A stretch of DNA of 64,000 bases from a virus. Lineage: Duplodnaviria > Caudoviricetes. The stretch is from positions 67,566-131,565 of the IMG/VR virus record IMGVR_UViG_3300021399_000117; one strand, written 5' to 3'. Of the stretch, positions 3,814 to 54,416 are shown in pieces (positions within the stretch are counted from its first letter, which is position 1; every line of letters begins with the position of its first letter). Below the pieces are notes generated by a model. The model was not told the origin of the DNA, made no database searches, and saw only the letters and a list, made by a program, of their open reading frames with translations. A program made the translations under genes and the position numbers.

Positions 3814-3844
3814 CTATATGTAGAACATTATTTTGATCCTGCAT

Positions 3845-4480
3845 ATGGCAAATTATACTGACAAACAGAAAAACGAACTAACCAAGCAGTACGAACCACT
3901 AATCAACAAACTTACCGGCCAGTTTTATACAACCGTTCAGATGGATTGGGATAGCATCAAGTCCATGGCATACGAAGGATTTGCACTAGCACTCAACAAA
4001 TACGATGAGTCCAAGAGTAGCATGTCTTTTATGTCGTTCGCAGCGTTCGAGATGCGTAACAACATCATGACCAGACTCACGGAAGAGGCTCGCACAGTAA
4101 AACTACCTTTTGAGGAGCAGAAAAGGCGAAAGGAATCAGGAGAACCCTTATTCAACACCGTATCGATCGATCAGAGTGTTCGTGATGACGATGATATCAA
4201 ACCACGAGAGATCGTGATGGGTATGTACGAGACAGCCCGATTCGCTGACGGGGATGTCTTCAACTATCTTTACGAACGTCTAGAAGAAAAGTTTCCTCAA
4301 CGTGAATGCGACATGTTCTATATGTCATTCGGACTCAAAGGATTCGAAGAGACGCCGAATCAAGACATAGCAAAGAAATTCTGCGTCAGTGAAGGGTTGG
4401 TATCCCAAAAGAAACGTAAGATCCTCGATTGGATCAAAACCGATCAGGATCTGTGTGAGATGTTGTCTAACCTATCATAA
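3845..4480 (+). CDS. RNA polymerase sigma-70 family factor
   Basis: Region 2 (YEPLINKL...AYEGFALALNKYDESK..SFMSFAAFEMRNNI) and region 4 HTH (FGLKGFEETPNQDIAKKFCVSEGLVSQ); ATG at 3845. Confidence 0.85.
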   Translation: MANYTDKQKNELTKQYEPLINKLTGQFYTTVQMDWDSIKSMAYEGFALALNKYDESKSSMSFMSFAAFEMRNNIMTRLTEEARTVKLPFEEQKRRKESGEPLFNTVSIDQSVRDDDDIKPREIVMGMYETARFADGDVFNYLYERLEEKFPQRECDMFYMSFGLKGFEETPNQDIAKKFCVSEGLVSQKKRKILDWIKTDQDLCEMLSNLS

Positions 4481-4830: not shown

Positions 4831-5012
4831 GCAGAAAACCACGGCACAATCCAAACAAGCCTGCCAACCGTAGGAGTCCTCACTGTCCCTGCTACGAAAT
4901 AATCAACGGCAAATGTTATTGCACAAGTAACGGCCCGACAAATCCTAAGTGCGAAGGCAACATTCATAACTGTGTCAAAGTTCAGTATCAACAATTAGCA
5001 ACAATAAAATGA
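4827..5012 (+). CDS. Small Cys-rich hypothetical protein
   Basis: ATGA overlaps with both neighbours; five Cys. Confidence 0.55.
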   Translation: MSRKPRHNPNKPANRRSPHCPCYEIINGKCYCTSNGPTNPKCEGNIHNCVKVQYQQLATIK

Positions 5013-5569
5013 GTATAACAGATTTGAAAAACTTCCCTTTCGAACACGACGGACAAGAGTTCTGGTATAGTCGTTCGATTGTATCCTGCGGATATGTGTT
5101 CTGTTACTGGTACAACACCTGGCATGTCCTAGCTGTCAAACGGGGCGCTACACAAACCCTACCCAAACAATGGAACGTGCCCGGAGGATTCCTGGATCAC
5201 AACGAGACGACACAGCATGCTGCCAAACGAGAGGTAGCTGAAGAAACAGGCCTCCCATTAGCTACGCGCGATTTTCATTTGTTCAGTGTCAATTCAACCC
5301 CAACAGGTAAGAAACAGCATGTGCTCTTCAACTACTACTGTAATATAGGTAAGGTAAAAGAGTTGCCGTATTTGGATCCATCCAATTGTGAACCTGGTGA
5401 AGTAGAACACGCTATGTGGATACCTGTAGAAGCCGTCAAAAAGTTCAAATGGATCAATGCACAGTGGGTGAATATTGAATATGTATTCAACACGTACATT
5501 CATCCTAGTCTTTGGCAACGCATTCGTAATCGCCTAAGTAATCAAATAGATATCGTGTGGGGTATATAA
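5009..5569 (+). CDS. NUDIX hydrolase
   Basis: Nudix box GGFLDHNETTQHAAKREVAEETGL. Confidence 0.9.
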   Translation: MSITDLKNFPFEHDGQEFWYSRSIVSCGYVFCYWYNTWHVLAVKRGATQTLPKQWNVPGGFLDHNETTQHAAKREVAEETGLPLATRDFHLFSVNSTPTGKKQHVLFNYYCNIGKVKELPYLDPSNCEPGEVEHAMWIPVEAVKKFKWINAQWVNIEYVFNTYIHPSLWQRIRNRLSNQIDIVWGI

Positions 5570-5593
5570 AACTCTGTACGATTTTTTATATAT
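5566..5593 (+). promoter_or_regulatory. Class A promoter (no hairpin) for queD-queE-dpdA
   Basis: ATAAAA-N15-17-TATATAT. Confidence 0.45.
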
Positions 5594-5616
5594 TTATATG
5601 ATAATCCATTATATAT

Positions 5617-6210
5617 ATGCAAATCAGAAAAGAGTTTAGAGTAGAAAGCGCACACATAGTGCGAAACTGCACCTCCGAACGTTGTTCTCATTCGATTCAC
5701 GGACACAGTGCTGTGATTGAAGTCATCTTCGAAGGTCGTCAATTGGACAACGCTCAAATGCTCGTAGACTTCGGTTTGATGAAAGGCAGCATCAAGCAGT
5801 TTATCGATTCTATGGATCACTGCTATCTGCTCTGTTCACATGACAAACCTGAGTTCCGTGAGTTTATCAAAAAGAATTGCGATCGATACATTGAGTTGCC
5901 GTTCAATCCGAGCGCAGAGATGTTGTCTATGTTCATCATGATCGGTGTACAACGTATCTTGGACATGACCGAGTTCAATAACGGTGAAGAAACACCTGTA
6001 CGAGTAGCAAGTGTTCGTTATCATGAGACCACCACGGGTTATGCACAGTGTGATCTAACAGATTGTGTGAACTACGAAAACACCATCGATTTCGATTTCG
6101 TTGAGTTCTCTGACGGTGTCAAGAAAGACTGGTCACCGGAACTTCGTGAGGCTCTGGAACTAGGTCATCCTATTGTCAATCCAATCGTTGAACGTCAAAT
6201 TGATCTGTAA
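5617..6210 (+). CDS. queD: 6-carboxy-5,6,7,8-tetrahydropterin synthase QueD
   Basis: F..ESAHIVRNC.SERC.HSIHGHS, LVDFG, DH, NPSAE, VRYHETTT motifs; adjacent to queE. Confidence 0.9.
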   Translation: MQIRKEFRVESAHIVRNCTSERCSHSIHGHSAVIEVIFEGRQLDNAQMLVDFGLMKGSIKQFIDSMDHCYLLCSHDKPEFREFIKKNCDRYIELPFNPSAEMLSMFIMIGVQRILDMTEFNNGEETPVRVASVRYHETTTGYAQCDLTDCVNYENTIDFDFVEFSDGVKKDWSPELREALELGHPIVNPIVERQIDL

Positions 6211-6211
6211 T

Positions 6212-7030
6212 ATGCTGCCAGTAGTAGAAATGTTCACTAGTATTCAGGGGGAAGGAAAGTACGCCGGAATACCGAGTCACTTCGTAAGAGTGAGTGGTTG
6301 TAATCTTCGCTGTGTCTTTAAGGACAGCGTGTGTGACACACCATATTCCTCATTCAAGCCAGAAAAGCCTATCGCCAAAGACCTAGAGGAACTGGTGCGT
6401 CTATTCAAAGAACTCCAAGAGAAGTCTCCAAAGGTTAAACACCTGGTCATTACCGGGGGAGAACCCCTGATGTACGCGAAAGACCTGGATATGTTCCTCC
6501 GCCATATCTATGATGACGAGATGGTCATTACCATCGAAACCAACGGAACCTATCCGGTCCTGAATCCGCTGAGCCCGTACTTCAAGATCGCGCTCTATAG
6601 TGTATCTCCGAAACTCGCCACCAGCGTTGGTAAACCGGGTATGTACGGCAAGAACGGCAATATCGAAGTCACCCAGCAAATGGTAGACCGTCACAATCAA
6701 TTGAGGATCGATCCGCAGAACCTGGTAGACATTGTGATGAACGCCAATGACTATCAGTTCAAGTTCGTGTATAGCGGGCCTGAGTGTGTTGATGAGATTA
6801 TGGACATCTATTCACGAATGGGTGCTATTGCTGAGAAGTACGACCCGTTTATGGTCAGCTTCTATTTGAAGAACCACCCCAACAAACACACTATGTTGAT
6901 GCCAGAGGGTATTACCAATGAGCAACTCGCAGCCAAACGTCAAGAGATTGCAAATATTTGTATTCAACGGGGATGGACATACACCGATCGTATCCACATC
7001 ATTATCTGGGGAGATAAGAGAGGGGTGTAA
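6212..7030 (+). CDS. queE: 7-carboxy-7-deazaguanine synthase QueE (radical SAM)
   Basis: EMFTSIQGEG, GCNLRC..CDT, ITGGEP, IETNG, SVSPKL, RIHIIIWG; ATG at 6212. Confidence 0.92.
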   Translation: MLPVVEMFTSIQGEGKYAGIPSHFVRVSGCNLRCVFKDSVCDTPYSSFKPEKPIAKDLEELVRLFKELQEKSPKVKHLVITGGEPLMYAKDLDMFLRHIYDDEMVITIETNGTYPVLNPLSPYFKIALYSVSPKLATSVGKPGMYGKNGNIEVTQQMVDRHNQLRIDPQNLVDIVMNANDYQFKFVYSGPECVDEIMDIYSRMGAIAEKYDPFMVSFYLKNHPNKHTMLMPEGITNEQLAAKRQEIANICIQRGWTYTDRIHIIIWGDKRGV

Positions 7031-7101
7031 TGAATAAGAAGTATATGGACAATAGATTTAACTGTCCAAAGTGCGGCCATCAAGAAGAAATCACTGACTA
7101 A
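7030..7101 (+). CDS. 23-aa micro-ORF (MNKKYMDNRFNCPKCGHQEEITD)
   Basis: Its ATG overlaps the queE stop (TAATG) and its stop lies 1 nt before the next ATG; CPKCG knuckle; absent from the ORF track. Confidence 0.45.
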   Translation: MNKKYMDNRFNCPKCGHQEEITD

Positions 7102-7102
7102 C

Positions 7103-7930
7103 ATGAAAACAAACTGTGAATTACCATTATGCATGATGGACAAGAATTTGGAATTGAATGATTTCGATTTCGTTTTGTTCCATCTATATCAGTCTAACAA
7201 GACCTATCGCGAGTACTATCAGAAGATGAGAGTAGAACATCCGGAACGACTCATGATCCTGGACAACTCTGCGTACGAGTTCTTCGTCAAAGGAGAAAAA
7301 CTGGATATGCTCCAATTCAAAAATACCATCAAGGAACTCAAGCCGGATTACTACATCTTGCCAGATGTACTCCAAGACAAAGAGAAGACACTGCATGGTG
7401 TTCGGGAGTTCTTGACGTGTTATGCGGATAAAGACATGGTGTCCAAACCACTAGCTGTAGCACAAGGTAACACCAGTATAGAATTGGTAGAGTGTTTCCA
7501 AGAGTATCTCGGACTGGGTATCGAATATGTAGGAGTGCCATTTCACTTGGAGTTCTACAAGCACATGCATATAGAAGATGACATCCTGTTCGAGTTTGGA
7601 ACGTCTTATGGAGAGACAAAATTCACAGACGGTGAAGACTATAAGTACGCGATAGGTCGTGTTCAGTGGGTGCGTGGACATGAGGAACTGTTGAAACGGT
7701 TCGACAAAGTGCATATGCTCGGATCACATTGTCCGTTGGAGAAAGTATTTTACCACGACTTCTATTCTATGGACACTGGGTATCCAGTCAAATTAGGATA
7801 CGAGAAGACATTATTAGGATTCGAAGATCACAAACCCGCATCTATCATAGATGATTTCATTGATGCGGAGTTGTCTCGCACTAAGAAACACTGCATTGAG
7901 TCCAATGTCAAAACATTCCGAGATCTCTGA
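7103..7930 (+). CDS. TGT-fold transglycosylase, DpdA-like (probable DNA guanine/preQ0 exchange)
   Basis: ILDNSAYE, ILPDV, AVAQG, VHMLG, SMDTG motifs match the TGT/DpdA pattern; lies in the queD-queE operon. Confidence 0.7.
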   Translation: MKTNCELPLCMMDKNLELNDFDFVLFHLYQSNKTYREYYQKMRVEHPERLMILDNSAYEFFVKGEKLDMLQFKNTIKELKPDYYILPDVLQDKEKTLHGVREFLTCYADKDMVSKPLAVAQGNTSIELVECFQEYLGLGIEYVGVPFHLEFYKHMHIEDDILFEFGTSYGETKFTDGEDYKYAIGRVQWVRGHEELLKRFDKVHMLGSHCPLEKVFYHDFYSMDTGYPVKLGYEKTLLGFEDHKPASIIDDFIDAELSRTKKHCIESNVKTFRDL

Positions 7931-7937
7931 TTATTAT
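7931..7937 (+). promoter_or_regulatory. Class B (late-type) promoter motif TTATTAT
   Basis: TTATTAT 23 nt before the ATG; same motif precedes capsid, sheath and protease genes. Confidence 0.55.
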
Positions 7938-7960
7938 TGTAAAAAAAATATACATATAAT

Positions 7961-9439
7961 ATGAAGTCATTAAAGGATACGATATTGGAACAATTTGATT
8001 CGAAACCGACCCTAACCCATACAGGATTTCAAATTTTGCACCCATTGACTGAATATCTGCTTAATGAAGACAAATATGTCGGCTCTTCTGATCAAGCTAT
8101 ATATGCTCGGTTGGGAATGCACAAATATAATCACTTGCCCAAAAATAAACAAGAAGAGGTTAAACGGCATTTTCCTGGAGCTCCAGGTAATAAATCTGCT
8201 TTGGCCCGATGGTTCAAATCTGTCAATGGCAAATTAGTACCTAACCAATACGAGTTTATTGGGAGATCTGATTGGAACATGTTAGACCAGATCGGAGAAA
8301 TCGAAAATTCTTTAATGGCTCCCCACAAATGGTCATATTTTGAACTGATTCGGAAAAATCCTAGACCGAAGAAGAACAAGATACTTACTGTTTTGGAATG
8401 TTCCAATTCTAAACCATATTGTCAGGATTCTGCAAAAAAGTGGTACTTTAAACGGTTCAGATCGTTTACCGATTTTGCTTGCGGCGCGTATGGTATAGTA
8501 CCGGAAGAATATTCACAATTGTATCCGGTACGTGAGGATGAATGGGCACATAGCGATGAGTCGGAATCTGTAGCATTCAAATACAATTTGATTTCCTGTA
8601 ACCGTGGGTATCAATATATCAAAGATATGGGTTACGAGAAGGTGATTGTATTCTTCCAAAATCCTGCGCCAGAGGAGTTCATGCGATGGATGAAAAATAT
8701 GCCCGGCATGGAGGATAAACTGATCTTCGTCATTACTCCGCAATTAGTGGACAAACTTAAAAAACATTACCCTCAATTAGGTAACGGTCTAATCATCACA
8801 CGAATGATGATGCTCTCAGAGGTTCATGAGGCATATATGAATGCTTTAAGCAAGTGTTTGTCCGGTGAGGATCGAGAAAGGTTTAACGAGATCAAAAAAC
8901 TGGTCAATGACGAGGATAAAACTGGTCAAAAGAAGTGGATTGAGGATACCAACCAAAAATTCGGAATCGAGGAATACCGGGTAGACAGACCAGGCTGGGA
9001 GGTAAAACTTGCTAAAGGTGATATAAATATACACAGTCGTACATCAGATGTAACACAGAAAAAAGTCGATGAGATTTCTAATTGGATTTCGTCCTGGGTT
9101 GAAAAACAAAACGAAAAAGACATCAAAAAAGACAAGATAGACTGGTACAAAGAACGTCTGATATTTACCCCGCTAGATCTTATCATCGATCATTACGAAC
9201 TGGGAGAGAAGAATCCAAAAAAATTGGATATCGACGAGGAGTATTGGAACGTGATGGCTGCGCTAGAAAAACACGCTCAAGAATGGGGTATAAAAAGGGT
9301 CAACCCTGATAAGTATCACAGATATGATTATTTGTGGTGTTTCGAAAGGGTGTGCAAAGAGGTTAAAAAAGATGATATGATCGAATATTGCGACAAAACT
9401 GGCTTGTCCCAATTTTATCAAAATGTATTAGACAGATAA
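7961..9439 (+). CDS. ArcS/DUF5591-like (archaeosine synthase domain) protein with capsid-type leader
   Basis: VLECSNSKPY...YGIVPEEYSQLYP resembles the DUF5591 pattern PCSxxKPY...GxVPxE.YP; N-terminus MKSLKDTILE. Confidence 0.65.
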   Translation: MKSLKDTILEQFDSKPTLTHTGFQILHPLTEYLLNEDKYVGSSDQAIYARLGMHKYNHLPKNKQEEVKRHFPGAPGNKSALARWFKSVNGKLVPNQYEFIGRSDWNMLDQIGEIENSLMAPHKWSYFELIRKNPRPKKNKILTVLECSNSKPYCQDSAKKWYFKRFRSFTDFACGAYGIVPEEYSQLYPVREDEWAHSDESESVAFKYNLISCNRGYQYIKDMGYEKVIVFFQNPAPEEFMRWMKNMPGMEDKLIFVITPQLVDKLKKHYPQLGNGLIITRMMMLSEVHEAYMNALSKCLSGEDRERFNEIKKLVNDEDKTGQKKWIEDTNQKFGIEEYRVDRPGWEVKLAKGDINIHSRTSDVTQKKVDEISNWISSWVEKQNEKDIKKDKIDWYKERLIFTPLDLIIDHYELGEKNPKKLDIDEEYWNVMAALEKHAQEWGIKRVNPDKYHRYDYLWCFERVCKEVKKDDMIEYCDKTGLSQFYQNVLDR

Positions 9440-9993
9440 TGAGAAACCTTTACGAAAGCATATTAGATGACGAATTGGATGTCATGGCTAAAGGTGATAA
9501 GGGTGGAGAGCGTTTGCTTCATGCATATGACATGATGAAGATGTTGGTAGATCATCTGGATATCGTTCGCAAGGAGGGTGCTGATGACCCAACACAAACA
9601 TCATACAAGTGCCCACTGTACTTCAAATTCAGAAATGGATTGAATGATCCGTTCGGAACGGTTCGTAAGCGCCTCGCGGACTTCAAGAACGATATGAAGA
9701 AGTATCCTGAGTTCAAGATAAACATTCATACTACCAGCAAGAAGGAATCCATGACTACACCAGGTCAGAGACGGGAGTATGGCGTGGGTCTGATGTATAA
9801 TCTCATTAAGAGATACAATATCGCGATCGAAGAAGGCAAAAAGATGTTCGGTACTATCGATATCACAATCGAACAGTACGACTTCAACAAAGAACTACAC
9901 GCCTCTAAGATGAACATATATGTTATGGCAAGTGGGTTCGATTACAGAGACCTATACCGGGTTATACTAGACCAAATGGATAGCAAAAAATGA
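9439..9993 (+). CDS. Hypothetical protein with leader (MRNLYESILD)
   Basis: TAATG coupling at 9439; ESILD leader subtype. Confidence 0.75.
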   Translation: MRNLYESILDDELDVMAKGDKGGERLLHAYDMMKMLVDHLDIVRKEGADDPTQTSYKCPLYFKFRNGLNDPFGTVRKRLADFKNDMKKYPEFKINIHTTSKKESMTTPGQRREYGVGLMYNLIKRYNIAIEEGKKMFGTIDITIEQYDFNKELHASKMNIYVMASGFDYRDLYRVILDQMDSKK

Positions 9994-10002
9994 TATATCA
10001 AT

Positions 10003-10323
10003 ATGAAAGGACTTTCAGAGACACTTAAGGAATCACTCGAAGTGAATGAAGCCAAGCAGGTGCTTGCAAATACGATTCAGTGGGAGGCAGATAAGGATGC
10101 AGCATACACCACTCTCGACGCAGCTGACGGCATCAAGAAGTTCAAGCATGCATTCCTTTCTTATAACCAATACGAAGGTGCCATCTTCGTAGTTGCGTTC
10201 AATTCAATCGAGGCTTACCAAGAGCTACTCGACACGGATGATGATGAGTACTCAGAACTCCTCAGTATGAAACCACAGGATACTAAGGTAATCAATAACG
10301 TATCCTATATCTGTCTAAAATAA
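10003..10323 (+). CDS. Hypothetical protein with leader; paralog of 32706..33008
   Basis: MKGLSETLKESLEVNEA; shares AAYTT.D, FLSY.QY, VAFN, LLDTDDD.YS.LL.MKPQ with the paralog. Confidence 0.75.
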   Translation: MKGLSETLKESLEVNEAKQVLANTIQWEADKDAAYTTLDAADGIKKFKHAFLSYNQYEGAIFVVAFNSIEAYQELLDTDDDEYSELLSMKPQDTKVINNVSYICLK

Positions 10324-10331
10324 GGAAGAAC

Positions 10332-10499
10332 ATGGCATACAAGATTACTGACAATTGCGTAGCCTGTGGAACCTGCGCAGAGAATTGCCCGATGGGTGCT
10401 ATCGAAGAGAAGGAAGCTGGCAAGTACGTCATCGACCCTGAGATGTGCACCGAGTGCAGAACCTGCCTAGACGGTTGCCCTGCAAACGCAATCAAATAA
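10332..10499 (+). CDS. 2[4Fe-4S] ferredoxin (55 aa)
   Basis: Manually translated MAYKITDNCVACGTCAENCPMGAI...CTECRTCLDGCPANAIK; two CxxCxxCxxxCP motifs; below the ORF-track length cutoff. Confidence 0.92.
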   Translation: MAYKITDNCVACGTCAENCPMGAIEEKEAGKYVIDPEMCTECRTCLDGCPANAIK

Positions 10500-10534
10500 G
10501 GAGTCAATAAAGATTGGCTCCTTTTCTTATATAT
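10500..10534 (+). promoter_or_regulatory. Class A promoter-hairpin (may also terminate the upstream operon)
   Basis: GGAGTCAAT-aaag-ATTGGCTCC, T run, then TATAT; ATAAA spans the loop. Confidence 0.55.
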
Positions 10535-10560
10535 TATGATATACACAAAACTAATTAGAC

Positions 10561-11517
10561 ATGAACAAAGACGTAAAAGTATTAGACCTTACAAGAGGTT
10601 ACGACGAGAACTTCGTACCTTCTCAACAGTACCTCGACTCTATGCCGGACCTGCAGAACGGTGAGTATAGTGATATTCCGATTGATTTCGTGGGTATTCA
10701 AAACTTCCATTTGCCACTCAAGGTAATCCAAAAGGATGGTAACATTCAAGAGGTCAAAGCAAGCATCACTGGTACGGTATCTCTCGAGGCCGAGAAACGA
10801 GGAATCAACATGTCTCGTATCATTCGCACGTTCTATAAGTCCAAAGACGATGTATTCAGCTGTGATCATCTGGAGAATGTCCTTCGCGCGTACAAGAAAG
10901 ACTTAGATACTTTCGATGCACACATCCTTATGAACTTTAGCTATTATCTCTGGCAAGACGCACTTCGTTCAGTCAAGGAGGACGGTACGCCTGAGGGAGG
11001 CTACCAGTACTACAACATCACGTTCGATGTCAATCTCGATAAGTCCGGTGAGTTCAAGAAGATCATGTGGGTGGATTTTGTTTACAGTTCAGCATGTCCT
11101 TGCTCTACAGAACTTTCTCAACATGCAGCACTGGAGCGCGGTGTCTATGGTATTCCTCACAGTCAGCGTTCGATAGCTCGTATCGGAATGGAGTACACCG
11201 GGGATCTATGGATCGAAGATGTCATTGATGCATGTCGAGCCGCACTTACCACAGAGACATTGGTATTCTGCAAGCGCCAGGACGAACAAGCATTCGCGGA
11301 GAAGAATGGTGCGCAGACTAAGTTCGTTGAGGACGCTATTCGTTATTTGAAACACGAACTGGATAAAAACCCAGTTATTCGAGATTACAAAATCATATGT
11401 TCTCATCAAGAAAGCTTACATAGTCACAACGCCGTCGCTGTTACCACCAAGGGGTTGAAAAATTCAATCTTCAACCATCACGTAACATTAGGTGAATGGA
11501 ACAGTATGATGGTATGA
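10561..11517 (+). CDS. folE2: GTP cyclohydrolase IB (FolE2)
   Basis: PDLQ, IDFVGI, RGINMSRI, YSSACPCS, PHSQRS, KRQDEQAFAE, FVEDAIR, ESLHSHNA. Confidence 0.92.
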   Translation: MNKDVKVLDLTRGYDENFVPSQQYLDSMPDLQNGEYSDIPIDFVGIQNFHLPLKVIQKDGNIQEVKASITGTVSLEAEKRGINMSRIIRTFYKSKDDVFSCDHLENVLRAYKKDLDTFDAHILMNFSYYLWQDALRSVKEDGTPEGGYQYYNITFDVNLDKSGEFKKIMWVDFVYSSACPCSTELSQHAALERGVYGIPHSQRSIARIGMEYTGDLWIEDVIDACRAALTTETLVFCKRQDEQAFAEKNGAQTKFVEDAIRYLKHELDKNPVIRDYKIICSHQESLHSHNAVAVTTKGLKNSIFNHHVTLGEWNSMMV

Positions 11518-11541
11518 TTATTGTATAAAAAAACACAATCT

Positions 11542-12150
11542 ATGAAAAATTTAAGCGACTGCATTAAAGAATCGATCAACGAAAGTTCTAATAAAATGAC
11601 AGCCATTTGGTCCCACGAAGATCCGGATACTATATATTTTATCAAAAATATGTCCAGAGACCAATACAAGCGCCTTCGGAATACAGATTGGAACTGGGAC
11701 GACATTGATGTAAAAGAGCCTATCGCATTCTGCGGACACAATGACGAATCAATTCGAATAACTGGCGTTGCTGCATCTAATTTGGTTGGTCTCAAAAAAT
11801 TGATCTCCAAAGACATCGCACAAAACATTCAGGAGATGATCGATGCTGGAGAAGTGTACGATGAAGTTATATTCTATTCACTGGACGAGGACGAATGGAG
11901 CCTCAAAGATTTTCGCGATGCTAAAGAGGTTGAAGATCTTAAGAAGATCAACCCAGATCGTGCTGCTGAAAAATGGTTGAAAGGCCTAGAAGACACCGAG
12001 GTGGACGGAGATAGTTCACGCGCATACTATTTTGTAGATCTCAGAAAAGGTGAACAGATCGCTGGTAGCGAACATATAAGTGTTGTGTTTGCTGACCTTG
12101 AAGAAGATGAAGATATACGTCATAGCATCCTTGGGTATGACGAAGACTAA
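11542..12150 (+). CDS. Acidic hypothetical protein with leader (MKNLSDCIKESINES)
   Basis: ATG at 11542; TTATTGT variant motif at 11518-11524. Confidence 0.75.
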   Translation: MKNLSDCIKESINESSNKMTAIWSHEDPDTIYFIKNMSRDQYKRLRNTDWNWDDIDVKEPIAFCGHNDESIRITGVAASNLVGLKKLISKDIAQNIQEMIDAGEVYDEVIFYSLDEDEWSLKDFRDAKEVEDLKKINPDRAAEKWLKGLEDTEVDGDSSRAYYFVDLRKGEQIAGSEHISVVFADLEEDEDIRHSILGYDED

Positions 12151-12252
12151 TAAAAGTGAAACAGCATGATGATGTAAAATTCTTTCATAACTTTTTTCCT
12201 TTCGCAAAGACATCGGTTCGTGAGAATAGGTGTCTTTTTTTTTATGTCGGTC

Positions 12253-12279
12253 CTAAAATTCAAGAGTCTACTATTATAT
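12253..12279 (+). promoter_or_regulatory. Class A promoter
   Basis: CTAAA-N17-TATAT. Confidence 0.5.
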
Positions 12280-12297
12280 TATATACACAACAGTTCA

Positions 12298-12362
12298 TCC
12301 TGCGATATCGGGGTACGGCCGGACCCCTTGAGTGTTATAACAGACACGAAGATACGCCAGGA
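12298..12362 (+). ncRNA. Candidate structured 5' leader RNA (three-way junction)
   Basis: TCCTG/CAGGA closing stem, GGGGT/ACCCC and GTGTT/GACAC hairpins; GC-rich island in an AT-rich spacer. Confidence 0.4.
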
Positions 12363-12387
12363 AAGTTAAAAATAAACAAATTGACTT

Positions 12388-13149
12388 ATGACAAATGAAA
12401 ACATGACGGCTATCGCTGTCAACAAATCACTCTTGAAAGAGTATTTTTCTAATGGTGTTCGTACTGTATTCATGGACGATTGCACCGAGTTTCAAATCAA
12501 GCTTTTCAATCCCCTTACTACCAGAGTATCAGCCCGAATCGAAATTGATGGTGAGTCTTTAGGCAACGAACTTATCCTGCGTCCTGGTGAGACTGTATGG
12601 TTGGAGCGTTATTTCGACAAACCCAACAAGTTTAGATTCGAGACGTACACTGTCGAATCAGGCTCGGTCGCAGTAGAACGTGCTATTCGTAATAATGGCG
12701 TGATCACCATATCCTTCCACAAGGAAAGACCGGGTCAACAGCCGATTCAGATCCCGACGTACAAAGGCATAGAGCCTATGTACAGTAAGTGTTTCAAAAG
12801 TGTTCCGATTGAGCTCAATACCTTGTCTAGTAGTTACAACGTCAGCCCAATAGAGGCAGACTATAGTGTCGCAACTATGGATAGTTGTACGATGAGTACT
12901 TCCACAAACACTCAGCCTATCACGAAAGAAACAGGACGGGTATCAGAGGGCTCGTATTCTTCACAACAGTTCCAAACGGTTAATATGGATACCGAGATTG
13001 TTCCATTCAACATAGAAACAATCAAGATCCTACCTCGTTCACAAAAACCTTATACCAAAAACGACCTGGAGAAGGTTTACTGTACCAACTGTGGACGTAA
13101 GATTAAGCCTAAATTCAAGTACTGTCCGTTCTGTGGTGCAAAGCAATAA
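12388..13149 (+). CDS. Hypothetical protein with C-terminal zinc ribbon
   Basis: C-terminal YCTNCG...KYCPFCG; beta-rich N-terminal domain. Confidence 0.8.
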   Translation: MTNENMTAIAVNKSLLKEYFSNGVRTVFMDDCTEFQIKLFNPLTTRVSARIEIDGESLGNELILRPGETVWLERYFDKPNKFRFETYTVESGSVAVERAIRNNGVITISFHKERPGQQPIQIPTYKGIEPMYSKCFKSVPIELNTLSSSYNVSPIEADYSVATMDSCTMSTSTNTQPITKETGRVSEGSYSSQQFQTVNMDTEIVPFNIETIKILPRSQKPYTKNDLEKVYCTNCGRKIKPKFKYCPFCGAKQ

Positions 13150-14068: not shown

Positions 14069-15136
14069 ATGAAACAATTATCCACATATCTAATGGAGCA
14101 CGTCGCACCTATCTTTGAGGGTGGTGCCGGAGGTCATATGCTCCATCCATATCTCCTCAACTGGGTGAAGTCTGGTAAGGACCTCATCAAGTTCTATGAG
14201 TCGGTTGCCAAGAATATGGAGAACTTGAACGCCAGCATGAAGATTGATGGTGTCAATGTATCTATCCGTATGGTAGACGGTGAGTTCGTTTTCGACCGCA
14301 TGTCTCCAAAGGACATCGAAGGTATTAAGAAAGACCAACTCGCTGATCGATTTGGTGCAGGACATGGTCTTGTTAAGATGGGTGGTCTCGTACTCGATAT
14401 ATTCAACTCATGTATTGATTCATGTAAGTCCGAACTCAAACAGTTAGGTCTGTTAGATGACGAGACTATATTATTCAATATAGAGTATGTCGACAAAAAC
14501 ACCAACCTCATCTCCTACAGTAACAGCTTCCTAGCCATTCATGGCTTGCTCAAGTTCGAAGTGAACGGCAAAAACCGCACCACTCACGAAGTAAACTATG
14601 ACCAGAAGACATTGGATAATCTCATCGAAAAGCTCAACAAAGCATCAGCTAAATACGGCTTCGATGTAGTAGGCTCAGTTGGTATCGAAATCAAGCGTAA
14701 ACCTGATCTCAATAAGGTGCTCAAGGAGTCACTCACTATCAACGCATTTGGTGAGCCTGGTAGCAAAACAATCGAAGAGTGGTTGAATGACATCAACGAG
14801 TTCGATGTGACCAAATATGCTACTACGTTCAGCCTCGGTCGCATCAGTGTCATCTCACATAAAGCATACGTTGCTTGCACCAACGTTGATGTACCTCTCA
14901 ACAGTGTATTCAAGAAGGAACAAGACATACCTAACATCATCAACAGCTTCATCATCTACGAAGCCAACAGACGTTTCGGTGACGAGATACTTAGTTGTAT
15001 AGACAGCAAGATTGGTGCAGGTAATGATAATGAAGGTATCGTTGTTCGTAACAAGTCAATCACCAAGACAGATGCTCCAGTCAAGATTACCGGTAGCTTC
15101 TCTATCAATATAGCAAATTCACGTTTCGCAAAATGA
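14069..15136 (+). CDS. ATP-dependent ligase-fold protein (DUF6267-like) with leader
   Basis: GGAGGHMLHP start, motif I KIDG, FNIEYV, motif IV EGIVV, motif V KITG; leader MKQLSTYLME...PIFE. Confidence 0.6.
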   Translation: MKQLSTYLMEHVAPIFEGGAGGHMLHPYLLNWVKSGKDLIKFYESVAKNMENLNASMKIDGVNVSIRMVDGEFVFDRMSPKDIEGIKKDQLADRFGAGHGLVKMGGLVLDIFNSCIDSCKSELKQLGLLDDETILFNIEYVDKNTNLISYSNSFLAIHGLLKFEVNGKNRTTHEVNYDQKTLDNLIEKLNKASAKYGFDVVGSVGIEIKRKPDLNKVLKESLTINAFGEPGSKTIEEWLNDINEFDVTKYATTFSLGRISVISHKAYVACTNVDVPLNSVFKKEQDIPNIINSFIIYEANRRFGDEILSCIDSKIGAGNDNEGIVVRNKSITKTDAPVKITGSFSINIANSRFAK

Positions 15137-22748: not shown

Positions 22749-23315
22749 TCAACGGAACACAAAAACAGCATTCCCTTTATCGTCGAACTCCGGCTTTCTG
22801 TTGAACTTGTTAGCCAAGCGCTTTGCCCATTGTGTGTCACTGGTGGCGCCTACTTGAATAATCCGTGGTTTAGTATCCAAAGGATCATATTTGAACTTCA
22901 TTATGGATGGAATTACAGCCGCGTTTTTAAGATCATCAGGTTTGGCGATCTCGCCATTCTTTTTGTAATATGTTCTCCAATAACCATAGACCTCCACAGA
23001 ATAGAATAGTCTATTTGCATGACGGTCAGACAAGGAACTGGTCACATACAGCTCGTATTTGATAGGAGCCTCTTCAACACATTTCTTACCAAGATATGTA
23101 TTGAACCATTTGACTATTTCTATCCACTCATCATCATGTGGTAACAAGTCGTGCTTTTTGATAGCGTCTTTTATATTACGTTTGACTCGAGGTGCGCTAT
23201 ATTCTTCACGCAGACCTTTTTTCAAAGGTCCCCATATCGATAAAAACATTTCTGCAGATTTATCGGCTTTGTCCATGATGTCACTATCTAATATGGATTC
23301 GTATAAGGTTTTCAT
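22749..23315 (-). CDS. Hypothetical protein with leader (MKTLYESILD)
   Basis: Own TTATTAT at 23322-23328 (minus). Confidence 0.75.
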   Translation of the reverse strand: MKTLYESILDSDIMDKADKSAEMFLSIWGPLKKGLREEYSAPRVKRNIKDAIKKHDLLPHDDEWIEIVKWFNTYLGKKCVEEAPIKYELYVTSSLSDRHANRLFYSVEVYGYWRTYYKKNGEIAKPDDLKNAAVIPSIMKFKYDPLDTKPRIIQVGATSDTQWAKRLANKFNRKPEFDDKGNAVFVFR

Positions 23316-35356: not shown

Positions 35357-36784
35357 ATGGCAAAAAATTGTTTGGTATACGAAACACTTCAACCGATTAA
35401 CGAAATGAAGCGTACCGTCACTGAAGACGGATTGATGCACTTGAAAGGTACATTCGGTGTATGTGGTGTCAAGAATAACAACCAACGTATCTACGAAGCC
35501 GGCAACTACGGTAAGATGGTAGCAGAGATGAAGAAACGTCTTGAGCATAGTCCTATTCTTGGTGAGCTCGAGCACCCTTCAACAATGAACATCACCCTCG
35601 AAAACGTATCACACAAGATCACTGATATCAATATCGATGAGAATGGTGTTGTTTCTGGTGAAGTCGTTCTTTTGAACACTCCAAAAGGTAAGGTAGCACA
35701 GGCTATCGTTGAGGGCGGCGCACCACTTTATATATCTTCACGTGCACAAGGTATGGTAGATCCACGTACAAGTGTTGTTACATTGGAAAACCTAGCAACT
35801 TATGATTTGGTTGGATCACCAGGCTTCTCTCAAGCAGAGCTCCATCTTAATGAAGGTCAGGTTGCTGAATCAATCTGTGAGTCTTGTGGTGTAGTGTACA
35901 TCAACGAAGGTCAAGATCCTAATTCAAACAAAACAAATGTAAATCAAGATATGGAAAAAGAAATACTTGAAAAGATCACTGCGCTCGAATCCAAAGTAGC
36001 CGCTTTGGAGGCCGATAACGCAAATCTTAAAGAGCAGCTCGAAAATACCGACAAGTTCAACAAGAAAGCACTCTGTGATGGTATTCAAAAATGGGTTCTC
36101 GAAGAGTTCGCACCAGAAGTACAGAAGTGGGTTGTTGAGCAGTACTCACCAGAAGTACAGAAATGGGTTGTTGAGTCCTTCGCACCAGAAGTACAGAAGT
36201 GGGTTGTTGAGCAGTACTCACCAGAAATCCAAAAATGGATCCTCGAACAGTACTCACCAGAAGTACAACGTTGGACACAAACCGAGTTCGCAACCGGTAT
36301 CCAAAACTGGTTCGTAGACGAATGTGCACCAGATTTCGAGAAGTGGGTAACCGAGAACTTCGGTTCACAAGTAACAAACCAGATCACCGAAGCCGTCGAG
36401 AAGAGCAAGAAGAACAGCTTGTCCAACATCGAAAGCACACTCAGCCTATTGGAAGGTATTCAACCAACCAAACCTACTTATCCTGGACAAACACCGAAGT
36501 CGCCGATTGTTACAGAAGGTGCGCCTAAGTACATCTCCGAGATGCCTGCCGACGTGCGTGTTAAGTACGATTTGGCAAGCCAGGATATCAAAGAGGCTAT
36601 CGAGCGCCGCGCTAAATTGTTCGATTTCAACAAGCACTCAGTTAACGAGTTCTGGGCAGGTGTTAACTTCGACACTATCAAACCTGTAACAACCATCGTA
36701 GAGAGTGCAACAGTAATCACTAACGAACGCGAACGCGCTATCCGCGCACAGTTGGCTTCATGGCACAGCAAACGTTTCGGTTAA
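35357..36784 (+). CDS. Prohead protease (T4 gp21-like) fused to a scaffold-like C-terminal region
   Basis: NNNQRIY, LGELEHP, VSHKI, NTPKG, ISSRAQG, YDLVGSPGF; TTATTAT at 35316-35322. Confidence 0.88.
   Translation: MAKNCLVYETLQPINEMKRTVTEDGLMHLKGTFGVCGVKNNNQRIYEAGNYGKMVAEMKKRLEHSPILGELEHPSTMNITLENVSHKITDINIDENGVVSGEVVLLNTPKGKVAQAIVEGGAPLYISSRAQGMVDPRTSVVTLENLATYDLVGSPGFSQAELHLNEGQVAESICESCGVVYINEGQDPNSNKTNVNQDMEKEILEKITALESKVAALEADNANLKEQLENTDKFNKKALCDGIQKWVLEEFAPEVQKWVVEQYSPEVQKWVVESFAPEVQKWVVEQYSPEIQKWILEQYSPEVQRWTQTEFATGIQNWFVDECAPDFEKWVTENFGSQVTNQITEAVEKSKKNSLSNIESTLSLLEGIQPTKPTYPGQTPKSPIVTEGAPKYISEMPADVRVKYDLASQDIKEAIERRAKLFDFNKHSVNEFWAGVNFDTIKPVTTIVESATVITNERERAIRAQLASWHSKRFG
36085..36363 (+). 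repeat. In-frame 36-bp (12-aa) tandem repeat, about 8 units, consensus QKWVVEQYSPEV
   Basis: Repeated CACCAGAAGTACAGAAGTGGGTTGTTGAG within the protease/scaffold CDS. Confidence 0.9.
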
Positions 36785-36867: not shown

Positions 36868-37311
36868 ATGGATTATCGAGTTCTTGAGAATAAACGTAAT
36901 ATCACAAACGAGCGAAGTGGTGAGGATATAAAGGATCTTTTGACCCTTACTTTTATTATGCCTGAACAAGCTGGATTCACTATGTTCAAGGTGACACACG
37001 AATATGTAGCTCGCCCTGATCTCATATGTCTGGCTCATTACGGAACAGACGACCCTGTTGATATCGTATGTAAGATCAATGGCATCAGCAACCCTTATGA
37101 ATTGAACGAAGGCACCATTCTTGCTCTACCTGATGCTGCTGACTTATGGAAATATATTTACGACGGAGACACCATTCAACAAGACTCAGAATCTGGCAAG
37201 GCCGTCAATCCCGCACCTAAGACACGTATCGAAAAACGCAAACCGAACGAAGCTGTTATTGGTGACAAGCGATTTAAGATCGACAAAGAGCACCGAGCAG
37301 TCATATACTAA
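36868..37311 (+). CDS. Baseplate wedge protein (T4 gp53/LysM-like)
   Basis: RPDLI...YG...I...NGISNPYEL.EG.IL.LP motif; TTATTAT at 36852-36858. Confidence 0.7.
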   Translation: MDYRVLENKRNITNERSGEDIKDLLTLTFIMPEQAGFTMFKVTHEYVARPDLICLAHYGTDDPVDIVCKINGISNPYELNEGTILALPDAADLWKYIYDGDTIQQDSESGKAVNPAPKTRIEKRKPNEAVIGDKRFKIDKEHRAVIY

Positions 37312-42827: not shown

Positions 42828-43118
42828 ATGACATTAGCAGAAGAATTACGCTCCAAACTGAACGAGGGCATGGTAAGCTTTAGCTACCGAAAAGTAAACG
42901 GCGAATGGCGCGAGGCACGCGGTACTCGTAATCCAGAAGGTATTGAAGTCCTTCATGGTGAGACACCAAAAGGTATCGGAAAAGAGATCGAAGGCATCAT
43001 CGCGTACTGGGATATGGATGTCAATGGGTGGCGCTCCTGCCGCGAAGACTCTATCATTGCAGTGAATGGCTCCTACACAGTAGAAGAGTGGAAACAGAAT
43101 CATCCGGAGGAGGCGTAA
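42828..43118 (+). CDS. WYL-like/SH3 beta-barrel protein (DUF2693-like)
   Basis: V.FSYRKVNGEWREARGTR...YWD.D..GWRS motif. Confidence 0.75.
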   Translation: MTLAEELRSKLNEGMVSFSYRKVNGEWREARGTRNPEGIEVLHGETPKGIGKEIEGIIAYWDMDVNGWRSCREDSIIAVNGSYTVEEWKQNHPEEA

Positions 43119-43150
43119 GCTTCCTCCTGTTTTTTAAACGAATAACACAC

Positions 43151-43510
43151 ATGGAAGTAACAGGAACAGTAATTTTTACCGAGACCCAATCCGGTACCTC
43201 CAAGGCAGGACGCCCTTGGCAAAAGAAAGTGTTCGCCATTGAGTTCATGGAAGGCACGTACACCAAGCATCTCGCATTCGAACTCTTTGGCGAGGAACGT
43301 ATCAATAATAACCAGTTCAGAAAGGGTCAGACAGTCACGGTTTCGTACGATGTAGAGTCTGAAGAGTACAACGGGCGTTGGTACACAAGATGTACGGCAT
43401 GGCGCGTCGCTAAATTCGATCCATCGGCTCCGAACACACAACAACCAACGCAGCCGGTATCGTTGAGTGCAGCAGCAAAACCAGCAGACGCAACGGACCT
43501 CCCGTTCTAA
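43151..43510 (+). CDS. DUF3127-like OB-fold single-stranded DNA-binding protein
   Basis: SGTSKAG.PWQKK, FELFG, V.YDVES.EYNGRWYT...AW, DLPF tail; ATG at 43151. Confidence 0.8.
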   Translation: MEVTGTVIFTETQSGTSKAGRPWQKKVFAIEFMEGTYTKHLAFELFGEERINNNQFRKGQTVTVSYDVESEEYNGRWYTRCTAWRVAKFDPSAPNTQQPTQPVSLSAAAKPADATDLPF

Positions 43511-43541
43511 AGAACATACAAACATCCAATATATTATACAT

Positions 43542-44528
43542 ATGGAAAATAAGAAATGTGTTATCTCGATGTCGGGAGGACTTGACTCCACATCACTTGC
43601 GCTATACATGCTCTCGCAAGGCTATGAAATCCGAGCTTATGGGTTTAACTACGGACAGAAACATGACGTAGAGCTCAGCCTGGTAAAGAAAAACATCGCC
43701 TATCTACAATCGAAAGGTTATCCTATCACGCATCAGACGATTGACTTGAGAGATGCCTTTTCAGATTCCAGTTCATCATTGCATAAGGGTGGAGACGCTA
43801 TTCCCGAAGGAGACTATCGGGACGAGACCATGAAGAGTACCGTGGTAGAAAACCGCAATATCATCTTCAGCTCTATCATCTATGGCAAGGCACTGGCTTG
43901 GGCTAACAAGACACAATCGAACGTGGTGATTACACTCGGACTGCATGCTGGGGACCATACGATCTATCCTGACTGCCGCCCGGAGTCACAAGAGATGGCT
44001 CGTGAGCTGTTCCGCATCTCAAACTGGGGATCAGAGCGAGTAGACTACGTTGCACCGTTTATCAAGATTGACAAAGGCACGGTACTCAAGAAAGGTATCG
44101 AATCGTGCGAGAAACTGGGACTTGATTGGAAGATCATCTATTCGAACACAATCTCCTGCTACAATCCAGACGAACTAGGCCGGTCCTGTGGTAAGTGTGG
44201 TACGTGTGTAGAGCGTCTTGAAGCTTTTGAGAAGTTAGGCTTGAAAGATCCTATCGCTTATCAGGATACTCCCCTCACGGAACACAAGTTCCTATTGCAG
44301 ATGTGCACCAAGGACGGCAAAGAAATAGGCGTGACTTCGATAAAGGTCAAGAGTCCTAATTCAGACAAAGAAGTAGTGTTTGACAACCTCCCGTACGACG
44401 AAGGATTTATTCGAAACGCCGAAGCACGACTGCAGTATTCACACTCAATCAACCCTGAGATTGTGTCGGCTTGTGTAACCGGTTTGAAAGAAGATGATTA
44501 TGAAAGTGTGACTGTTGCACATATCTGA
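43542..44528 (+). CDS. queC: 7-cyano-7-deazaguanine synthase QueC with C-terminal extension
   Basis: SGGLDST, NYGQKH, VENRN, YPDCR, SCY...CGKCGTC..R; CTAAA...TATAT upstream (43507-43534). Confidence 0.93.
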   Translation: MENKKCVISMSGGLDSTSLALYMLSQGYEIRAYGFNYGQKHDVELSLVKKNIAYLQSKGYPITHQTIDLRDAFSDSSSSLHKGGDAIPEGDYRDETMKSTVVENRNIIFSSIIYGKALAWANKTQSNVVITLGLHAGDHTIYPDCRPESQEMARELFRISNWGSERVDYVAPFIKIDKGTVLKKGIESCEKLGLDWKIIYSNTISCYNPDELGRSCGKCGTCVERLEAFEKLGLKDPIAYQDTPLTEHKFLLQMCTKDGKEIGVTSIKVKSPNSDKEVVFDNLPYDEGFIRNAEARLQYSHSINPEIVSACVTGLKEDDYESVTVAHI

Positions 44529-53272: not shown

Positions 53273-53866
53273 ATGGAGATAAGAAAAGCAGCTGTGTTCT
53301 ACATTGAAGAGATTTCATCCAAACATAAAGCAGCACTGCGACAGCTACGTAAACTAGAAAATCGTTATGTTTTCTCATCTAATAGATGGAAGGCTGTGCA
53401 AATGGAGACTGAAGGTGAGTCATTCGGATCGGAAGAGAATAAAGCGCTTCGTACTAAGGTGTACGATGAGTTCGCTGCAGCTAAGTCCGCTTATCTGAAT
53501 CTCAAAAATCAGATAGAACAATACGAACTCTGGCTAGGTAACCACATCTATATGAATCGTCACGGATACACAGACATGCATCCTTATGAGGTGATACGTA
53601 TCGATACTCCGAAAAAGATGATTATTCGAGAAATGCTTGCGACAGAAACAGAAGAATCCAAGAAAAGACGTAAGGAAACTTTTGTGCCCACAGGATTTCT
53701 CGGAATCTCGGACAACGATGTTCAGGAATGGGATATTCGTTCACAAGACATATCCGATTTCGACTTCGCAGTACGCTTGCACGGTGACGGTTTCTGGTAC
53801 GATGCCAATGGTAATCGGTATACCATGTCCGACAAACCTATTAAGTTTTACGATTTTAATTTTTAA
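53273..53866 (+). CDS. Hypothetical protein
   Basis: 197 aa; YTDMHPYEVI...YDFNF pattern. Confidence 0.7.
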   Translation: MEIRKAAVFYIEEISSKHKAALRQLRKLENRYVFSSNRWKAVQMETEGESFGSEENKALRTKVYDEFAAAKSAYLNLKNQIEQYELWLGNHIYMNRHGYTDMHPYEVIRIDTPKKMIIREMLATETEESKKRRKETFVPTGFLGISDNDVQEWDIRSQDISDFDFAVRLHGDGFWYDANGNRYTMSDKPIKFYDFNF

Positions 53867-53870
53867 TCCT

Positions 53871-54416
53871 ATGCATCCAGTAACCATTTTAGACAAACAG
53901 TTCGAGCAATTCATTACACAGGATCAGATCACCACTGAGATACTCCGAATAACCACAGAGCTTCAGCACAAGTATCTTGTTGAGAAAGTGCCAGTATTCA
54001 TTGTGGTGACCAATGGTGCCATGCGATTTGCGTCAGACATACTTGGGCATTACAATGGCGTCTGTGAGGTGCGTTGTATCCGATTGTCCTCATACAATGG
54101 CGGTACAGAATCATCAGGTACCGTAAAAACAGTCTTCGGACTGGATGACAGTCTAAAAGAACGAGACGTGATAATCGTTGAAGACATCATCGACTCCGGC
54201 AAGACCATTCATGAACTGCGAGAGCAGCTGATAGAACTGGGTGTAGGAAGTATAGAAGTATGCACTGCATTATTTAAACCGGATGCCTGTGAGTACGATG
54301 ACGCCTATCCTGATTATTGGGGATTCGTTGTTGACAACCTCTTTGTAGTAGGATATGGGATGGACTACAAAGAACGAGGACGCAATCTAAATGGTATTTG
54401 GAAACTGAAAGCATAA
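53871..54416 (+). CDS. hpt: Hypoxanthine-guanine phosphoribosyltransferase
   Basis: SSYNG.T.SSG, IIVEDIIDSGKT, FVVGYGMDY..RGRNL; ATG at 53871. Confidence 0.92.
   Translation: MHPVTILDKQFEQFITQDQITTEILRITTELQHKYLVEKVPVFIVVTNGAMRFASDILGHYNGVCEVRCIRLSSYNGGTESSGTVKTVFGLDDSLKERDVIIVEDIIDSGKTIHELREQLIELGVGSIEVCTALFKPDACEYDDAYPDYWGFVVDNLFVVGYGMDYKERGRNLNGIWKLKA

Follow-up and report, generated by a model that had tools for sequence, protein, structure and literature searches.

In a 64-kb stretch of DNA (the window, which is the 3' 64 kb of a 131,565-bp IMG/VR contig with an estimated completeness of 62%), an uncultured jumbo-type gut phage encodes a 492-aa DUF5591/ArcS2-like enzyme (P0001, 7961..9439, + strand), the gene of which starts 30 nt after that of a putative DpdA3-type DNA guanine transglycosylase. 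The evidence as a whole is best explained, with a probability of roughly 0.55, by an ArcS2-type amidine-forming enzyme that is dually transcribed and the pool of which is partly packaged via an N-terminal leader. The protein has the ArcS core, is tied to DpdA and preQ0 genes and is alone among the pathway genes in combining a structural-gene-type promoter motif with a leader, as had been pointed out in an earlier note on this DNA.

The likeness to ArcS/DUF5591, also recognised in the earlier note, was borne out by profile searches and by the predicted fold. Pfam DUF5591 (PF17884, gathering score 26 bits) gave 24.8 bits by hmmscan of the protein and 26.8 bits in a six-frame search of the genome. 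The 22 close metagenome homologs share 46-67% identity, and PF17884 is present in the precomputed annotation of 14 of them. A profile of these homologs reached 117 clusters at 50% identity, the distant ones of which carry DUF5591 at 60-71 bits. The AlphaFold2 (AF2) model of the 492-aa protein, with a mean predicted local distance difference test score (pLDDT) of 83.7, was matched by VIA to AF0587 (PDB 2q07) with Z 11.9 and a root-mean-square deviation of 3.0 Å over 152 aa (model aa 124-353), the next match being at 5.4. AF0587 was also the top Foldseek match, with a probability of 1.0. Because of this structural match, and because the family profile connects the protein to strong DUF5591 proteins, we regard the DUF5591 assignment as settled. 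Searches of the PDB sequences with phmmer and with the family profile returned nothing useful, and PHROGs and NCBIfam held no match for the protein.

Both core motifs that had been quoted for the protein are present. The C-x3-KPY signature (CSNSKPY, 8399..8419, aa 147-153, + strand) comprises C147, K151, P152 and Y153; the GIVPEEYSQLYP block (8492..8527, aa 178-189, + strand) contains G178, P181, Y188 and P189, which are 83-98% conserved in the superfamily alignment. The C-x3-KPY pattern was found in 117 of 137 related sequences, and the alignment consisted of the query and 117 related sequences carrying C-x3-[KR]PY (118 in total), which were chosen by that very pattern. Within these 118 sequences the K151 position is 97% conserved, and W105, G112, C147, K151, P152, Y153, D171, G178, P181, Y188, P189, W195 and Y225 are 83-100% conserved and all kept in the query. 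TGT-like, TGT_C2 and PUA domains gave no Pfam match on the protein, which we therefore assign to the ArcS2-type stand-alone core and not to canonical ArcS. The DUF5591 core is flanked by an extra conserved, helical N-terminal region and by a C-terminal domain of ~200 aa. A sub-domain of the latter (9053..9355, aa ~365-465, + strand) showed weak winged-helix-like matches, with VIA Z values of 5.0-6.0, below the reliable range, to the winged helices of Stn1, SelB, GntR, Z-alpha and Rpa2; when the C-terminal domain was modelled alone, winged-helix matches likewise gave Z ≤ 6.0. From these models a winged helix with a DNA-binding role is a hint only.

The upstream gene (7103..7930, + strand, stop TGA at 7928-7930) encodes a 275-aa protein that matched 18 tblastn records, all from Campylobacter CP220-type phages or Flavobacterium immuto, with 26-28% identity, 84% coverage and E values of 1e-14 to 2e-16. 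The immuto match is annotated as 'DNA guanine transglycosylase', and the protein also matched PHROG 19058 (E 2.5e-15). Pfam TGT was found neither on this protein nor elsewhere in the genome, and the lack of a Pfam TGT match has been reported for DpdA3 (PMC10516641). By sequence, the 275-aa protein is a DpdA3 homolog, which agrees with the DpdA-like neighbour named in the earlier note. Farther upstream lie queD for 6-carboxytetrahydropterin synthase (5617..6210, + strand; Pfam PTPS 79 bits, PHROG QueD-like, TIGR03367) and queE for a radical SAM CDG synthase (6173..7030, + strand; Pfam Radical_SAM, PHROG QueE-like E 4e-54). A genome search with PF04055 gave one match, so queE is the sole radical SAM gene found in the 131.5-kb record. 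The gene folE2 for GTP cyclohydrolase IB (10561..11517, + strand; NF010200 261.9 bits, Pfam GCHY-1 224.6 bits) is situated 1.1 kb downstream of the DUF5591 gene, and queC is found at 43543..44528 (+ strand; Pfam QueC 154.9 bits at aa 30-257 of a long ORF, or open reading frame, 43028-44528), its true start likely being ATG 43543 (MENKKCVISMSGGLDS). QueC has a C-terminal extension of ~95 residues, which shows a faint QatC-like match, and a DUF3127 gene is situated immediately upstream. The order queD-queE-dpdA3-DUF5591...folE2 recurs in loci L004/L005/L016 and L012, and dpdA3-DUF5591 adjacency also in L017. Adjacency is thus kept in four lineages, with DpdA3 identities of 48-55%.

With this set of genes, FolE2, QueD, QueE and QueC would make preQ0, and DpdA3 would exchange guanine in DNA for preQ0 after replication. 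The DUF5591 enzyme would then add an amine to the preQ0 nitrile, probably with the help of Cys147, the invariant cysteine in the C-x3-KPY pocket. This would give an amidine: dG+, or else a lysine adduct of the kind made by Thermococcus kodakarensis ArcS. The lysine adduct would persist, because no RaSEA partner was found. By analogy with the archaeal enzyme, stand-alone ArcS2 enzymes, the present one included, could plausibly form a lysine-type amidine adduct.

Several points weigh against an amidine-forming enzyme of this kind. The Pfam DUF5591 score is borderline, and the canonical signature PC-X3-KPY-X2-S-X2-H (from Phillips 2010, as quoted in PMC10516641) is only partly kept, reading E-C-SNS-KPY-CQ-D-SA-K here with P, S and H replaced. 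The ArcS2 of phage nt-1 showed no pairwise similarity to the query by tblastn, and the hhalign comparison of the family with it was weak (E 0.088) and was used for motif register only. STSV2 encodes ArcS2 yet contains dCDG (PMC10516641). Loci L008, L009 and L018 have no deazaguanine genes within 8-10 kb of the family member. Finally, neither a RaSEA nor a QueF gene was found in the 131.5-kb record, an absence that is provisional because the genome is ~62% complete (~38% missing). The L018 member (L018:4878-6200; P0147/P0022 lineage, 214 sequences) is a leaderless 440-aa protein of a smaller phage, on a 31-kb contig with portal and VapE-like primase genes. It is translationally coupled to a RuvC-like gene, and neither dpdA3 nor a que gene is present in the 4.9 kb upstream (to the contig end) or in the 10 kb downstream.

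Some of these points could indicate that no amidine is formed on DNA, the nitrile being hydrated or hydrolysed to dADG or dCDG, or that the enzyme acts on free preQ0 nucleotides before DpdA3 insertion. The dCDG of STSV2, a virus with DpdA and ArcS2, would fit such chemistry, as would the replacement of S and H of the canonical motif by D and K. An amidohydrolase role for phage ArcS has been raised by Hutinet et al. (PMC6884629; PMC10516641), and the characterised DpdA3 phages insert bases other than preQ0 (PMC10516641). Action on free nucleotides would be in line with the acceptance of preQ0 nucleosides and nucleotides by T. kodakarensis ArcS and with a gene for a phosphoribosyltransferase-domain protein in the window (53637-54416; Pfam Pribosyltran 52.9 bits). 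These observations are opposed by the formation of dG+ by the only phage ArcS2 assayed, by the archaeal relatives, which are RaSEA-ArcS fusions beside ArcTGT and hence part of the amidine pathway, and by the presence of a complete preQ0 pathway including QueC. We consider a non-amidine product, or action on free nucleotides, unlikely and retain the amidine-forming enzyme as the preferred reading.

The DUF5591 gene probably has two modes of transcription: read-through from the queD promoter, and initiation at a TTATTAT promoter of its own that would also serve two other leader-tagged ORFs. The terminator scan and the upstream sequences revealed an element upstream of queD that consists of a terminator-like hairpin, a T-run and TATATAT (class A; 5552..5616, + strand) and is likely the start of the transcription unit holding the DUF5591 gene. 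Elements built in this way also stand before the sigma gene, folE2 and orf13290. Downstream, the DUF5591 stop overlaps (TAATG) the start of an ORF with the leader MRNLYESILDDE... (9439..9993, + strand), which is probably co-transcribed with the DUF5591 gene and gave no family matches. A second leader-tagged ORF (MKGLSETLKE..., 10003..10323, + strand) is the last gene before an intrinsic-terminator-like hairpin (10498..10523, + strand), which closes the unit and is followed by the class A element of folE2. On the + strand the only terminators in the region are at 5552-5582 and 10498-10523, and from the sequence queD-queE-dpdA3-DUF5591-orf9439-orf10003 appears to form a single unit, within which a TTATTAT promoter is placed. 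Since no terminator lies between dpdA3 and the DUF5591 gene, read-through expression together with the upstream pathway is likely.

The internal motif, TTATTAT at 7931..7937 (+ strand), is placed directly after the dpdA3 stop and 23 nt before ATG 7961. The earlier note had assigned it to the gene as its own, and motif counts agree with this. Within the 67 nt upstream of 171 called ORFs, TTATTAT was present in 24 sense and 6 antisense copies; 500 first-order Markov simulations gave 3.0 ± 1.8 copies with a maximum of 11, as compared with the 24 observed. Genome-wide, 30 of the 59 copies are intergenic, versus 4.5 expected under uniform placement. The genes behind the motif include those for the prohead protease, major capsid protein, tail sheath, tail fibre and baseplate protein, which by association makes it fair to call the motif 'structural-gene-type' and probably late. 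The motif is conserved before orthologs in L004, L006/L007 and L009 at 16-22 nt from the start codon (19 nt in L004, 16 nt in L009, 22 nt in L006/L007), and L012 has a variant. The other pathway genes are placed differently, as had been claimed: queD and folE2 sit behind the hairpin, T-run and TATATAT, and queC lies downstream of such elements. The proposal that the gene is late-promoted can thus be upheld only in part. Its motif is of the structural-gene type, but exclusively late expression does not follow, as no terminator separates the gene from queD-queE-dpdA3.

A sigma-70-type promoter with TATAAT at 7954-7959 was considered and rejected, the generic scan performing no better than shuffles (27 sites versus 26.2 expected). 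At other genes of the window (22749-23315, 14069-15136, 36868-37311, 55485-56159 and others) TTATTAT ends 6-9 nt before the ATG; if the motif is -10-like, this spacing would make their mRNAs leaderless or nearly leaderless. At 3833-4480 the phage encodes a sigma-70/ECF-type (extracytoplasmic function) sigma factor that has region 4; its gene follows a class A element, and the factor is a candidate recogniser of one of the two promoter classes.

The protein begins with MKSLKDTILE (leader 1; 7961..7990, aa 1-10, + strand), which fits a decapeptide recurring across the genome. The pattern M-[KR]-x-L-x-x-x-[ILV]-x-[ED] starts 24 ORFs (~14% of ORFs), the products of which have no BLAST similarity beyond residue 20. 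Positions left free in the search pattern are biased as well, with S3 in 12/24 and E6 in 15/24. L4 is encoded by five codons and position 8 by eight, so it is the peptide that is conserved and not the nucleotide sequence. In the AF2 model, aa 1-25 have pLDDT <50 and the N-terminus is predicted to be disordered. Directly behind class A promoters 0/14 genes are tagged, as compared with 5/23 directly behind TTATTAT, and the remaining tagged genes lie inside operons. None of the other deazaguanine pathway proteins of the genome carries the leader.

Alignment with the homologs (alignment A1) showed that the leader is double. Residues 26-36, (L)HPLTEYLLNE (8036..8068, + strand), match the leaders of the homologs: TTG 8036 falls under the start codon (ATG) of 20 homologs, and the [IL]-x-E-D that the family conserves lines up with the E36-D37 junction. 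MKSLKDTILE is an added copy 25 codons upstream, with 15 residues between the two. The single leader described in the earlier note, running from MKSLKDTILE to LLNE, is corrected accordingly. Its decapeptide recurs on 24 ORFs, and its LLNE stretch (LHPLTEYLLNE) belongs to the leader of the homologs. In the sequence this tandem looks like the acquisition of a new promoter-proximal leader or a recombinational leader swap. Directly after folE2, a further leader-tagged ORF (11542-12150, MKNLSDCIKE) is preceded by a variant motif, GATTATTGTATAAAAAAA (11511-11541), that closely resembles GATTATTATTGTAAAAAAAA upstream of the DUF5591 gene; the like motif and leader at the two places suggest a mobile promoter-plus-leader cassette.

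The double leader raises the possibility that translation starts at TTG 8036, in which case MKSLKDTILE...FQI would be an untranslated 5' region and MHPLTEYLLNE the single leader. All but one of the homologs begin at this position in alignment A1, AGGA is present 9 nt upstream, and in P0017, the other extended homolog, the extension is no leader and may be an artefact of ORF calling. The decapeptide at ATG 7961, on the other side, fits the genome consensus at every conserved position and starts 23 nt after TTATTAT, a spacing comparable with those in L004, L009 and L006/L007; Shine-Dalgarno sequences are generally missing before genes of this genome. ATG 7961 is favoured on account of its fit to the consensus and its distance from the motif, and we regard a start at TTG 8036 as quite unlikely.

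Leaders of this type are found on many distant family members too, among them P0027 (MKTLQDFILE), P0036 (MKSLYTFITE), P0050 (MKSLSEYICE) and P0069 (MKNLSSLISE), and the retention of the tag on the enzyme across lineages argues that it is functional. Related phages have like leaders, e.g. MKTLYESLLDDE. The shortest and most distant family members and the P0021/P0022 lineage are without one. The phage further encodes a prohead protease of the T4 gp21/phiKZ gp175 type (35357..36784, + strand; Peptidase_S77 34.3 bits with a cut-off of 27, S80 28.9 bits, PHROG head maturation protease E 2.5e-37), the gene of which is itself behind TTATTAT. The presence of a gp21-family protease makes a capsid-cargo reading reasonable. 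In T4 the capsid-targeting sequence (CTS) is MKTYQEFIAE (PMC8442874). Targeting depends on its residues 4 and 7 and processing on residues 8 and 10, the cut by gp21 being made after L/I-x-E (PMC9026906). Judged by the T4 CTS and its cleavage by gp21, the leader probably directs a fraction of the enzyme into the prohead. There the enzyme would be trimmed, with cleavage predicted after E10 and/or E36, and it would be ejected with the DNA. Packaging of the enzyme is, on this analogy, plausible.

It is possible, although we rate it below packaging, that the protein is an ordinary cytoplasmic ArcS2 that is never packaged, its leader being, e.g., a regulatory propeptide, an interaction tag or a recombination cassette. 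The 24 tagged proteins (~14% of ORFs) are far above the T4 internal-protein set, P0021, P0022 and most short distant clusters are leaderless, and the DUF5591 gene is open to read-through from the upstream operon. These features have to be set against a positional pattern that matches the T4 CTS, in which the invariant position 4, as well as 8 and 10, matters (PMC9026906), and against the gp21-family protease encoded by the phage. Moreover, tagged genes go with the structural-gene motif and never stand directly behind class A promoters, and giant phages such as SPN3US are described as packaging >50 gene products (PMC10052503). We therefore favour the partly packaged enzyme.

The earlier note had gone further and suggested that the last modification step may take place inside the head or after injection and not during replication, acting on packaged preQ0-DNA, protein lysines or host tRNA. 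The gene's own late-type promoter and leader are compatible with this proposal, as are the description of lysine addition by ArcS with lysine as the only cofactor (PMC11298593) and the loss of dPreQ0 with little dG+ in the published nt-1 table (PMC10516641). It found no direct support, and the operon structure and the inaccessibility of packaged DNA speak against it. The lack of a terminator between dpdA3 and the DUF5591 gene makes earlier co-expression with the pathway likely, and modification of the DpdA type takes place in the cytoplasm after replication (PMC10516641). DNA in the head is tightly condensed and hard for an enzyme to reach, and bacterial tRNA carries Q and not preQ0. Modification inside the filled head is unlikely, and chemistry in the head or after injection as a whole appears highly improbable. 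Phage enzymes known to be packaged, T4 Alt among them, work on targets of the host once they have been ejected (PMC9026906). More speculatively, and with a chance that we put well below even, the DUF5591 family would be the first DNA-hypermodification enzyme to serve as virion cargo, brought to the prohead by a T4-like leader, trimmed by the S77 protease and ejected together with the genome, and its RaSEA-free product on DpdA3-inserted preQ0 would be not dG+ but a stable amino-acid (lysine-type) amidine adduct and thus a new DNA base.

The identical 492-aa protein was found also on a 207-kb contig, and the genome of this gut phage is roughly 210 kb in size. Its major capsid protein is nearest, at 31-38% identity, to those of an uncultured 462-kb phage, Tenacibaculum pT24/PTm1, Sphingomonas PAU and Lak phages, and the metagenomes containing this DNA are from animal gut. 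From these capsid relatives and this occurrence we conclude that the source is an uncultured jumbo-type gut phage. A megablast of window positions 5000-13000 and a tblastn of the 492-aa protein, both against 50,697 phage records, gave no match, and the IMG/VR search revealed no relative. A metagenome scan yielded two further loci, one of which is a duplicate of L004. Metatranscriptome contigs X2, X3, X5 and X7 span the stretch at low depth and 99-100% identity. They are uninformative on strand, ends, level and timing, and DNA carry-over is possible. The phosphoribosyltransferase-domain protein might turn a deazapurine base into a nucleotide, its link to the pathway being hypothetical.

With 7-deazaguanine modifications phages overcome restriction systems, and how these bases are made is under active study. 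DpdA3 is the transglycosylase subfamily linked to complete guanine replacement. The pairing of an ArcS core with DpdA3 thus predicts gut jumbo phages with DNA that is fully dG+ or bears a new amidine adduct. The leader kept on the enzyme in many divergent lineages offers a concrete, testable case of a modification enzyme in the ejected payload, and archaeal RaSEA-ArcS fusions together with the nt-1 data raise the question of what stand-alone ArcS2 enzymes actually make.

In comparison with known systems, the leader resembles that of T4 internal proteins and Alt, where a ~10-residue tag ending in [I/L]-x-E is found on unrelated proteins and is accompanied by late-type promoters and the gp21 protease; the corresponding tag here is M-K-S-L-x-E-x-I-L-E. 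The present phage is no T4 relative, its capsid protein being nearest to those of the pT24/PTm1, PAU and Lak jumbo phages. Its ~24 tagged proteins are candidates for packaging and cleavage, and no DNA-modification enzyme is described among the T4 cargo in the review PMC9026906.

The DpdA3 systems of CP220, phiST (Cellulophaga) and immuto (PMC10516641) combine DpdA3 with FolE, QueD and QueE, as is the case here. Those phages pair DpdA3 with QueC*, DpdL, or QueF and DpdN, leading to dADG, dDG and fdPreQ1, respectively (PMC10516641), and a pairing of DpdA3 with DUF5591 is not described in the main text of that paper.

With the archaeal ArcS alpha subunit, which acts with RaSEA (PMC11298593), the protein has the DUF5591 core in common, and the expected chemistry is likewise amine addition to the preQ0 nitrile. 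T. kodakarensis ArcS transfers only lysine to preQ0 (nucleosides, nucleotides), and RaSEA completes G+ (PMC11298593). Unlike archaeal ArcS, the phage protein is without the TGT-like N-terminal, C2 and PUA domains, has P, S and H of the motif replaced, presumably acts on DNA and not on G15 of tRNA, and is not accompanied by a RaSEA gene in the 131.5-kb record. AF0587 of Archaeoglobus fulgidus, its only strong structural match, shares 14% sequence identity and was deposited as a protein of unknown function. In P0109, P0114, P0123 and P0130, four distant matches of the family profile, a RaSEA-like radical SAM domain (TIGR01210, 100-115 bits) is fused to DUF5591 with the full canonical motif. P0114 (L019:2822-4165, archaeal assembly) divergently adjoins an ArcTGT with TGT, TGT_C2 and PUA domains, which ties the superfamily to genuine archaeosine synthesis; from its sequence, this type of fusion appears to be a single-polypeptide archaeosine synthase.

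Further parallels are the ArcS2 proteins of nt-1 (VPFG_00169, 226 aa, L014:1369-2049) and STSV2 (PMC10516641), which are likewise stand-alone DUF5591 proteins without TGT or PUA domains in viruses with DpdA and preQ0 genes. The C-x3-[KR]PY and G-[IV]-[IV]-P...YP blocks are in register between the query family and nt-1 ArcS2, where LCTTTRPY corresponds to C-x3-KPY and GVIPQQFWHSYP aligns with the GIVPEEYSQLYP block. In this experimentally active enzyme the canonical motif is also degenerate (LCTTTRPYENSRKW). Together with DpdA2 it yields dG+ (PMC10516641). In the co-expression experiment (PMC10516641, Table 3) dPreQ0 fell from 926-1607 to 0-11 per 10^6 nt and dG+ reached only 4-7. We infer from this loss of dPreQ0 with little dG+ that the main product probably lies outside the measured nucleosides, i.e. 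most of the product of the nt-1 ArcS2 reaction may have gone unmonitored. At 492 aa the query has twice the length of nt-1 ArcS2 and includes a conserved N-terminal region and a ~200-aa C-terminal domain. Its partner is DpdA3 and not DpdA2, its leader resembles a CTS, and the gene stands behind a structural-type promoter motif of its own. Phage ArcS2 and DpdA3 have both been published already; the new points are the DpdA3-ArcS2 pairing, the larger architecture of the enzyme, the extent of its family and a capsid-type leader that has been conserved.

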